From: Callorhinchus milii
Lineage: Eukaryota
Direction of reading: 5' to 3'
Length of the DNA: 64,000 nucleotides
Assembly: GCF_018977255.1 (NCBI RefSeq)
Contig: NW_024704752.1
Location: forward strand, 8,804,001 to 8,868,000
Shown: piece by piece, positions 48,901-52,602 of the stretch
Numbering within the stretch: the first letter of the stretch is position 1
How the letters are laid out: each line of letters starts with the position of its first letter
Translations under genes and position numbers: made by a program
Notes under the pieces: generated by a model
What the model saw: only the letters and a program-made list of their open reading frames with translations
Databases searched by the model: none
Told to the model about the DNA's origin: nothing

Positions 48901-51900
48901 TTTTTCCCTCCAGTCCTGAAGGTGCTGAATCATGCTAGGTACTATTGGGCAGATGTTAGTCATAATAATAATTATAATAATCCTTGGATTTGACATAGCG
49001 CCTTATCGTGCCTTTGAAACGTCTCAAAGTGCTTCACAGAATATACTGTATTTTTTAGTCTTTCCCCAGTATCTCACGTAAGTGACTGGTCTTCAAGTGT
49101 GAGCCCAGGTAGTAAGATTACCTGTGGGACTTCATAGCTAAGCCACATCCAATCCTCAAATGGCATTCATGCACCTATGTTTTTGCAACCGGGCGTCACT
49201 ACTTGGTTACAAGGAGTGATTTACCTTTCCCTCCCTCGTCAGCAACATTGAGGACATTGTGCTATAGAAATGCAATTTGTGGTTGTCGTCGCACTAATAT
49301 TGCTATTTATTCTCAGAATATTGGTCATTGTGAATCCAGTGTGTACATTCACAGAGCAGGAAGAATTTTAGAAGTGACTATGTACAACTGCACCATCATT
49401 CCAGGTAAGCAACATTGCATTTAGGCCAGCAAGTACATATGGGTTTCCTCCCCACTCGCCCCTTCCGCATTACGCTCATGAGAAATATCCCACAGTTGTC
49501 AAGGAAAAGCTGTCCATATTGTTCATTTGCAGACAAGATGTCATTCTGGATATATAATGCAGTTTTAACATACAGACCTCCAGCACTCTTTTATGGTTCC
49601 GAGATGAGCACATCAAACCATCTCTTGTTTGCAATAAAGAAATATTTGTAACAGTCTTATCTTTAGAAAATGATTTACAAACTAATTGATCGTAGTAACT
49701 AATTGTGTACCAAGCAAACAGGATAGACAGTGTCATGGAAAAAAATCAACCCTTGATGTCAAGAACCTGCACGGACACTGAACCTATCTCACACACAGAG
49801 AATTAACCTTCGACACTTAAATGTTCCTAATGCACAGAAAATGAAGCCTTAAACACCTAACCCAGCTAACACACAGAAAATTAACAATCCAAAACTAAAC
49901 TCAACCAAGACAAAGGAAATTGGCAATGATTATACGCACCAAAAATTACCCGTCACCTGTTTCACACTTTGCAGTGGCTTTACTAACTGAACCACAAGGA
50001 TAGATCTTGGGACAACTTGGTTTGAAGGCCTACCAATGGACAAACTACTACAGTATATCCTGAACAAACATGAAACAACTTAATCATGCCCAATATTATA
50101 CAGTTAATATAGATCTCACACCAAATTCTGTGTATATACAGTACTGCATAACATTTGAAACATACTCGCAACTGTTACTGTATAGGTTATGCATGTCTCA
50201 CACAAAAAACGCATTTGCTATTATATATGTAATGAAACATGAATAGAAATGGTATCACATATGTGATAATTGTGCTTACACATTAATTGCTTGTCACCTT
50301 GCTTCCCAGTTAACGATCCGTGGATTGTTCCCAAAATTGCACCTTGTCTTGGGTGTGCAATTTCTTTACCACACAACAGCTCCAGAGCTAAGGAAACCCT
50401 TGATTATTCTATTAAAAAGTTCAACAGTGACAGCAACTATCCTAATATCTTTGGGTCTGAGGTGATCTTCAAAGTGACTTCGCAGGTTAGATATTCCTTT
50501 GGAAATCTATAAACATTTAACTCATTCTTATACAGTATTTCTGGGGTTAGGAGGTTCTGAACTTAATGACACATCATCATATCTGCCTTTGTGTGATTAT
50601 GGGGAGAAGAAGCGTTAAGAACTTAATAAAGTGTGAAATAAGAAAAAGCCACAAAGCCAGTTTGCTGATACAATGCTATATGTTCGAAGCATCTAGTTTT
50701 ACGCAAATAAACAGAAACAATTATACACTATACCCAAAGTGAAGCCCACTCTAAAATCAAGGTTACTCCCTTCAGTGCTGCATTTATTTTAAATAGGTGG
50801 TGGCTGGATATTTATATACACTGAAGTTTTCTCTGCGGGAAACAGAATGCACCAAAAGTTCCAATGATGTGTGGCAAGATTGCATATTAAAGCCTGATAA
50901 TGCAACAACGGTGAGTATCACAGAAAGTAGCCTCTGCGCCCATCTCTACATGCTGTGCTATTCCCTGTAGTATTGCTTGGTGAAACTCTCCATACATTTA
51001 ACTTCAACACAGCGTGGATACAAGGAGAAAAAAGTGCATGTGATGACATATGTGGGGGCACAGAGAAAGAAGAGTGGAAAGAGGAAAGTACTGAGAAACA
51101 ATGGCTACAGTTACATTGATAAAATAGAGATGAAAATGAATGTAACAGGCAGAGAAGGTGGATCTTGCAATTAGAGGATTATCTACCACAGGACAAGTGT
51201 TTTGTATTGTATTCTGGGCAGGGATGTTAGAAGAGCCTCTGCCAAAATGGGTGAGAACAGAGTGTCTTGACAGTACATTGAGTAATACACAGTAATATAT
51301 TTTTAATCTATCTATGGTTTGTGTCAAGTGTATGTTAACATATCACCAGATTGGTTTGGATGAAGAAGGCCATTTGGCCCATCCAATTATTCTTCAATAA
51401 TATAGACTGGAATAGATTGGCAATTTAATGACTTCCTAACCACAACAACAACATCCTTGTACGAAGCTTGCATAAAGTAGAACTCATTTGCTAACAGCTG
51501 AAACTGTAAGTCTTGTGTATATCTCCTAAAGATAAATGGTACACACTGGGTCAACCCAAACAGTGCACCAATAAAGATGCCAAAAGAATATTGTAGTGTG
51601 ATGTGCTAGTTAAACCAGGTTTTACAGCAAATGAATTGTAAATATTTTTTTCTAATATTTACTCTCCAGCTTTACTGCAACTCAACTGTACTTTTCAGTA
51701 TTCGAGCAAATGAAATAGATACCTTTGTATCCTGCAGCACCGATCCGATTGGATTTCAAGTAATACTCTTAGAATTTGCTACTATATTTTAACAATCTGT
51801 TTAATCACTAATAAATTATATTACGTTAAGGAAAATGTTAAACTCAGTCTTAAAGTTGAAGCCTAATTTCCCCAGTACTTAAAAAAACTCACTGAAAACT

Positions 51901-52602
51901 GGCTGTGAATTAAGATTGTATTTAAGAATTTGCTAACTTCTGGACATTGAAATGCTAAGAAAATACAGTAAAGTTAGACTCAGGTGGAATTCCTCCTCCT
52001 AGGTTAGTTGTAATGCTCATCTCTCTACTCCTAACATTGCTTTTCTACTTCACTAATCATTTTGTGACCGATTGCACCTATTTTTGCTCGATAGTCCCTT
52101 GCCCATTCTACAACTGTTTGCTTTGAGATTTGATTTATAATTTAATTTGTCTAACAGAATTTTAAATGGGATAAACTTGGGAATAAAATAAAATGTTTTC
52201 CTCTTACTCTGTTTCAAGATGGAAGGATTCAGAAGCCAACCGACTGAGACCATTGGGATTTTGGCTCAGCAACGACAAAGACATAGGCAGCATCACTTTT
52301 ACCAACAGCAGGATTCCCATGAACAGCATCTGATAAACAAATCTGAGCAATCAAATCCAGCAGTCATTACAACTTCCGCTCCTCTGGAATTACCCCTTTC
52401 TGCAATAGATCAGCTTGCAGACCTTCTAGGACCAGAACCTCCTGTCAACTGCCCAGGAAAACCATGGAAGCCTTTGAGGCACATAACACCAACCGACCCT
52501 GTAAGTGAAACTGTTCCTCCTCCACTAAACACAGCTGAAGAGGGGGAACAACCCAAATCAGATGGCTTTTTCTTTGATTTTGACTTACTGGCTGGTTTGT
52601 AA
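45969..52602 (+). CDS. KNG1: Kininogen with two cystatin domains, 7 coding exons, 391 aa (gene 5)
   Basis: Exons 45969-46181, 48273-48383, 49317-49404, 50310-50485, 50797-50910, 51670-51759, 52219-52602; open frame (1176 nt). [29 protein letters not shown], His/Gln patch, CPGKPWK and terminal FDLLAGL (human HK CPGRPWK...YYFDLTDGLS). Confidence 0.88.

Follow-up and report, generated by a model that had tools for sequence, protein, structure and literature searches.

The window analysed here is the whole 64,000-nucleotide stretch of the Callorhinchus milii genome (contig NW_024704752.1, positions 8,804,001 to 8,868,000), and it carries two kininogen genes in tandem, gene 5 and its paralog gene 6 (P0013), whose structures and splicing are given in Table 1 together with the other features discussed. 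Three fetuin-like genes (window 17881-43800, +) precede both kininogens on the same strand, and such a gene order is that of the vertebrate fetuin-kininogen cluster. Between two of these fetuin-like genes lies an isolated frame (window 36778-36930, +) that looks like exon 6 of a fetuin-type gene (FCEASL...VTCEIC); tblastn matched no neighbouring exons around it, and it is possibly a remnant of another copy.

Table 1. Features of the kininogen locus and of related loci. Coordinates without a prefix are those of the window; prefixed coordinates lie elsewhere in the genome.
Feature	Position	Strand	Remarks
Gene 5 exon 1	45969..46181	+	Signal peptide, start of cystatin domain 1 (Cys34); spliced contig
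Gene 5 exon 2	48273..48383	+	
Gene 5 exon 3	49317..49404	+	
Gene 5 exon 4	50310..50485	+	CLGC opens cystatin domain 2; last codon is Gln of QVVAG
Gene 5 exon 5	50797..50910	+	VVAG of cystatin QxVxG loop
Gene 5 exon 6	51670..51759	+	End of cystatin domain 2; final residues ...CSTDPIGFQ; GT donor
Gene 5 intron 6	51760..52218	+	459 nt, GT..AG
Gene 5 exon 7, coding part	52219..52602	+	127 aa and stop; preceded by AG
Gene 5 kinin position	52219..52263	+	15 residues without G-aromatic-x-P-F motif
Gene 5 His/Gln/Arg patch	52267..52329	+	5 His in 21 residues
Gene 5 CPGKPWK	52450..52470	+	Holds Cys342
Gene 6, tandem kininogen paralog (P0013)	53693..60466	+	7 exons
Gene 6 exons	53693-53908, 54589-54699, 55490-55574, 57789-57961, 58431-58544, 59690-59791, 60233-60466	+	
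Gene 6 kinin-like nonapeptide ISPGMGAIR	60242..60268	+	Pro3, Gly4, Met5, Arg9 kept; Pro7 replaced by Ala
'Kininogen-1-like' gene (P0058)	G000:C5:62626008-62645928, loci L097-L099	+	Ten exons, three cystatin domains
B2 bradykinin receptor (annotated)	C9:23822100-23823173		XP_007910171.2; open frame, sole intact bradykinin receptor found

Gene 5 is an annotated C. milii kininogen with seven exons (45969-52602) and GT..AG introns, and its 391-residue product is identical to P0003 (NCBI name T-kininogen 1 isoform X1). The protein possesses a signal-peptide-like start and two cystatin domains (two stretches matched by Pfam Cystatin, E 3.4e-31), which retain CLGC, all 12 cysteines and, as the QxVxG loop of the last domain, a QVVAG that is split over exons 4 and 5. 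The second hairpin lacks its Trp, which is kept in gene 6 and in 19 of 20 elasmobranch kininogens. Both CPGKPWK and the C-terminal FDLLAGL are present in the light chain, as the preliminary description of this locus had stated, and with Cys34 and the cysteine of the CPG-x-PW motif both in place, Cys342 is presumably the partner of Cys34 in a heavy-light chain link, going by what is familiar from the family. Elasmobranch kininogens (e.g. Heptranchias P0007 and Leucoraja P0181) share with gene 5 the two cystatin domains, with CLGC and QVVAG in the second, as well as CPG-x-PW, a C-terminal D-L-L motif and 37-45% identity. Teleost and coelacanth KNG1 are likewise built of two cystatin domains and a last-exon tail with CPG/CPS-x-PW and D-L-L, but, unlike gene 5, they carry a kinin that ends in Arg9 and has both Gly4 and Pro7. 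The fetuin-B/HRG plasma proteins also resemble gene 5 in having two cystatin domains, no kinin and a place in the same gene cluster, and fetuin-B is in fact the best solved-structure match of gene 5 (E 1.9e-21). Trees (without named HRG) nonetheless set gene 5 apart from the fetuins and inside the kininogens, where it groups with gene 6 and the elasmobranch sequences (SH-aLRT 95), away from the fetuin outgroups (99).

The joint between exons 6 and 7 of gene 5 had been described as reading PIGFQ|MEGFRSQ, and the exon sequences, the splice signals and a spliced contig all agree with this. In run X5, which shows all six gene 5 joints, a spliced contig joins 51759 to 52219 (GT..AG), its shorter arm being 91 letters long. 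This joint is present in one of the three RNA-type runs; X6 and X7 show some of the other gene 5 joints, and one X6 contig starts exactly at 52219. Four runs were compared, none of the listed runs being recorded as RNA; the RNA status of X5 is a guess, and X5 may belong to the data behind the public annotation, in which case it is not independent of that annotation. The DNA-type run X1 yields a single contig over 51353-52910 with one intronic difference and no gap, so that no bases were dropped near 52222. Taken together, the gap-free DNA contig and the exact spliced joint led us to reject an assembly error. A hidden micro-exon in intron 6 was likewise rejected, as no candidate emerged when its 459 nt were scanned in frame for an extra small exon behind a pyrimidine-rich acceptor.

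As a yardstick for the kinin site we used 20 elasmobranch kininogens, 17 of them named and 3 unnamed but falling among the rays in the tree, and left out an Amblyraja isoform with an alternative ending (P0030). All 20 carry W-x-P-(F/L), mostly as GWGPF, 11-18 residues downstream of the final cystatin Cys, and all 20 lack Arg9, while positions 1-3 vary widely. The preliminary description had named RPPG(F/W)SP(F/L)R as the canonical kinin, a standard that does not hold for the cartilaginous fishes. Because every one of the elasmobranchs departs from human bradykinin, such divergence is normal, and what distinguishes gene 5 is that it lacks even W-x-P-(F/L). The chondrichthyan comparison upholds the lack of a recognisable kinin in gene 5 but not the canonical peptide as the basis of comparison. 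The kininogen of the little skate (P0181) reads MAMGITSWLPFAKR at the kinin site, an octapeptide that we take to be the peptide isolated as skate bradykinin. In the same protein, after residue 262, the octapeptide is followed by AKRPP, which resembles the start of kallidin and may be there by chance; the sawfish kininogen has ARRP at this place. Across the 20 elasmobranchs no conserved basic cleavage sites surround the GWGPF-type motif. No other chimaera kininogen appeared among the homolog and representative search matches, and no statement on a C. milii kinin was found in the literature searched, although the Blood Advances paper of 2020 about how the kallikrein-kinin system evolved, the skate bradykinin papers or their supplements may already show the sequences.

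Three kinin profiles were applied to the gene 5 linker, one from the 20 elasmobranch kinins, one from 63 kinins of bony vertebrates (comprising 38 distinct 9-mers; the motif used to select them requires Gly4 and Pro7, so this set is circular for those residues), and one combining both. Under these profiles the best windows of the 85-residue linker reach -4.2, -0.7 and -0.2 bits, none of them above chance (shuffle p 0.89, 0.63 and 0.61); by comparison, each of the two single-lineage profiles gives its lowest-scoring training kinin about 17 bits. A kinin domain (D4) with Gly4, hydrophobic residue 5, Pro7 and Phe/Leu8 was not found in gene 5 either. The earlier claim that gene 5 has no recognisable kinin is therefore borne out by both profiles and motif, even against the divergent kinins of sharks and rays. 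Four conserved kinin residues, Pro2, Gly4, Pro7 and Arg9, are named by Wong and Takei 2013 (PMC3835742), and gene 5 keeps none of these in a consistent register. As a side observation, the blue-tongued skink kininogen-1 model (P0051) has the unusual kinin site RPHFPFRS, without Gly, which may be a gene-model artefact.

The P.G, M and FRS residues of gene 5 had been interpreted as the surviving flanks of a collapsed kinin. This is not confirmed, and the register is ambiguous. The register implied there, IGFQMEGFR, keeps M5, F8 and R9 and straddles the exon junction, scores -4.3 bits, places position 5 at 9 residues past the last cystatin Cys (versus 11-18 in the 20 elasmobranchs), and would need a deletion at the exon start. 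In a MAFFT protein alignment, and in DNA alignments run with three gap settings, the GFR Phe is matched instead to the exon-start Phe of gene 6 and the sharks, and in this alignment-based register the kinin would have been lost by substitution around TIGIL. ETIGIL taken as an ungapped, substituted kinin was rejected, scoring -9.7/-15.2, no better than the IGFQMEGFR register. We consider it improbable that a radically divergent kinin comes from gene 5 and acts on a co-evolved receptor, whether as a tryptic 14-mer or as a junction-spanning peptide ending in MEGFR, and whether alone or beside the gene 6 peptide described below. Arg residues do flank the 14-mer at the kinin position, MEGFR retains M5, F8 and R9 in the register of the preliminary description, and the elasmobranchs attest to how freely the first three positions of a kinin can change; yet every gene 5 window falls below zero on both profiles, no better than shuffles, and Gly4 and Pro7 are absent in either register. 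Judged on its sequence, gene 5 is a kininogen by descent and not a kinin precursor, and in our estimation it probably yields no active kinin.

The gene 5 linker also differs from those of elasmobranch kininogens in its length (85 versus 25-58 residues) and in bearing a His/Gln patch. This patch had been listed among the features kept from the ancestor, which is not confirmed: because gene 6 has no such patch and 19 of 20 elasmobranch linkers hold at most 3 His, it is probably an insertion of gene 5 and not a retained D5, the little skate being the sole elasmobranch of the 20 to match the His count of the gene 5 linker. Mammalian high-molecular-weight kininogen is similar to gene 5 in its cystatin heavy chain, in a His-containing stretch past the kinin position and in CPG-x-PW (the last seen in reptile examples), but it has bradykinin, a third cystatin domain and an extended Gly-His D5, against two domains, no kinin, and 5 His without Gly-His repeats in gene 5. 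Coelacanth, lungfish and gharial linkers run to 186-214 residues with 11-19 His, compared with 85 residues and 5 His in gene 5, and neither the long His/Gly/Lys-rich D5 nor the prekallikrein-binding D6 typical of high-molecular-weight kininogen was found in gene 5. According to PMC8706920, cartilaginous fish kininogens are without D5 and D6.

Our searches returned one kininogen per elasmobranch species versus two in C. milii, and it is in the second copy that a kinin-like peptide was found. The last exon of gene 6 starts EFQISPGMGAIR and includes ISPGMGAIR, which the preliminary description had missed and which lies in register with the skate kinin site, with Lys-Lys upstream and Arg at its end; the candidate peptides are QEFQISPGMGAIR, ISPGMGAIR and their des-Arg forms. 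Residues 7-9 of this exon are G-M-G, and G-W-G stands at matching places past the divergence point of two Amblyraja isoforms, a point taken as the exon start. ISPGMGAIR is the top window of the whole gene 6 protein on the bony-vertebrate profile (5.9 bits), with shuffle p of 0.040 over the linker and 0.0097 over its first 30 residues, or 0.057 and 0.029 on the combined profile; the elasmobranch profile gave no match in gene 6 (p 0.93). Even the lowest-scoring of the bony training kinins reaches about 17 bits, against 5.9-6.2 bits here, and 3 of the 20 elasmobranch kinins do no better than ISPGMGAIR on the bony profile. Met5 is also found in LPAGMSPFR of the coelacanth and MPPGMSPFR of the paddlefish, which ISPGMGAIR resembles. 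Among kinin features, Gly4, Met5, Ile8, Arg9 and the position at the start of the last exon are present (p 0.01-0.06) and Pro7 is absent, being replaced by Ala at a site where Pro is found in 20 of 20 elasmobranch kinins and in all 38 distinct bony 9-mers (a set whose motif demands it). On these grounds ISPGMGAIR is plausible as a candidate kinin, albeit a weak one. The cystatin portion of gene 6 has FPGG, QVVSG and 10 cysteines (one disulfide lost), and its hairpin Pro-Trp is kept. A very high-copy, tRNA-like interspersed repeat lies in intron 1 of gene 6 (at window 54044-54363) and in other places.

How the two genes are related was examined with trees. A two-domain tree unites genes 5 and 6 as sisters (95/87) next to the clade of elasmobranch kininogens, a grouping that obtains SH-aLRT 90 with more outgroups. 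An AU test does not reject the arrangement of gene 5 with the elasmobranchs (p 0.31), and a last-domain tree places gene 6 outside a group of gene 5 and the elasmobranchs, with weak support (91/72). Promoters and the start of intron 2 can still be aligned between the two genes, and the synonymous distance differs by domain (0.59 and 1.26), which could mean gene conversion. A tandem duplication in the chimaera lineage is the history we prefer, although it is not secure. Over the cystatin domains the branch of gene 6 is longer (0.73 versus 0.37), and gene 5 is the conservative copy there, apart from its hairpin Trp. The upstream regions (45851-45968 in gene 5, 53571-53692 in gene 6) share a block roughly 70-110 bases upstream of the ATG, a candidate for shared promoter elements.

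Elsewhere in the genome, exon-by-exon searches with three kininogen queries (sevengill-type shark, skate and coelacanth), in which the best candidates were scored, matched genes 5 and 6, one fetuin and one gene on C5. Weak matches at C4:34.5 Mb, C3:25.1 Mb and C1:60.1 Mb were discarded as kininogen loci, having stops or no cystatin features. A third KNG locus encoding a canonical kinin, which the preliminary description had named as the finding that would overturn its reading, was not detected by genome queries, by a scan of 124 kb around the locus (no further kininogen exons) or by a degenerate pattern for canonical bradykinin codons (0 matches genome-wide). The C5 protein (P0058) has neither QxVxG nor a kinin, and the related proteins of lungfish (P0100) and white shark (P0065), which end in a kininogen-like D-L-L motif, are kinin-less as well. 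In the tree these three proteins form a family of their own adjoining KNG1, which may go back to an ancient duplication and have disappeared elsewhere, so that kinin-less kininogen-like proteins predate the case of gene 5; unlike the C5 gene, gene 5 is placed by its sequence in the KNG1 line. That the true kinin resides elsewhere, in an unseen exon, at a locus missing from the assembly or behind an assembly error, seems to us very improbable. The C5 gene surfaced only with the coelacanth query, which means that short divergent exons can be missed by searches that score best candidates exon by exon, and the 51759/52219 junction was seen in a single run. On the other hand, the DNA contig is gap-free and the spliced joint exact, three queries led to nothing beyond genes 5 and 6, the fetuin and the kinin-less C5 gene, and both the locus scan and the pattern search came back empty.

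We then have to ask what these genes would signal to. The open B2 receptor frame of C. milii has human B2R as its best structure match (E 2.8e-94), followed by B1R; it was located via an angiotensin-receptor-like query, two receptor-motif patterns having missed it. No B1 receptor was found when 132 of 435 candidates were scored, or within 120 kb surrounding the B2 gene, and the status of BDKRB1/2 raised in the preliminary description is accordingly mixed, with B2 intact and B1 not found in that sample. Because the bradykinin receptor gene is intact and no canonical kinin locus was found, the question of its ligand, also posed there, is a real one. Residues were mapped by hand from an alignment with human B2R onto contacts named in PMC8821558 and bioRxiv 10.1101/2021.05.27.446069. 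The C. milii receptor keeps R196, I137, F286, T290, E307 and Q315, has Glu for D311 and Lys for R297, and is changed at N57 (Tyr), S138 (Tyr), E221 (Ser), T224 (Leu), S289 (Phe) and D293 (Ser). D203 and E204 align, with some uncertainty, to Lys and Pro beside a two-residue gap, and up to 4 of 6 acidic ligand-trap residues are thus changed relative to human B2R. Since D293 binds Arg9 in human B2R (PMC8821558), Ser at this place would not favour an Arg9-ended ligand. The receptor changes fit a ligand less basic than bradykinin, for instance a peptide starting with Ile, and we give an even chance to the gene 6 peptide being the ligand of this receptor.

A scheme that would accommodate these data begins with a duplication in tandem that probably took place in the chimaera lineage, after which the jobs of the parent gene would have been divided. 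Gene 5 may have kept the cystatin inhibitor role, blocking papain-family proteases via QVVAG, with inhibition possibly weakened by the missing hairpin Trp; a trypsin- or kallikrein-like enzyme could free the gene 6 peptide at the upstream Lys-Lys and the terminal Arg; and ISPGMGAIR or its des-Arg form would act on the single intact B2 receptor, whose altered pocket might accept it. Our best reading, at about even odds, is that gene 5, an intact and spliced duplicate lacking a kinin motif, acts as a secreted protease inhibitor of the cystatin type and that the B2 receptor is served by a degenerate kinin from gene 6. The fuller proposal, in which no canonical kinin remains, gene 5 serves as inhibitor, gene 6 provides a kinin without Pro7 and the acidic trap of B2 has been rebuilt to fit, is more tentative.

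The same receptor changes may be read as decay. Kininogen-derived kinin signalling could have degenerated in this lineage, with neither paralog active, the gene 6 peptide a remnant, and B2 an orphan or served by a ligand from another precursor. Pro7 and an aromatic residue 5 are missing from both paralogs, the genome-wide pattern search found no canonical bradykinin codons, B1 did not turn up in the sample described, and B2 is altered at the six contacts above and probably at the D203/E204 equivalents. However, the B2 frame is intact, with R196, F286, T290, E307, Q315 and an acidic residue at 311 kept, and gene 6 retains Pro3, Gly4, Met5 and Arg9 in register despite a synonymous distance of about 0.6-1.3 between the paralogs; we regard decay as rather unlikely and retain the division of labour between genes 5 and 6 as our preferred reading. 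In either case C. milii is a jawed vertebrate without a standard kinin in any kininogen gene found and with a B2 receptor still intact, and its locus sets a co-evolved ligand-receptor pair lacking the otherwise constant Pro7 against a natural loss of kinin signalling. The structure of cartilaginous-fish kininogen is considered key to the evolution of the kinin system in PMC3835742. The genes themselves were already annotated, and the effect would so far appear confined to one lineage. Finally, the neighbourhood of the B2 receptor (G000:C9:23747566-23823212) contains four other GPCR-like frames with 24-27% identity to it.
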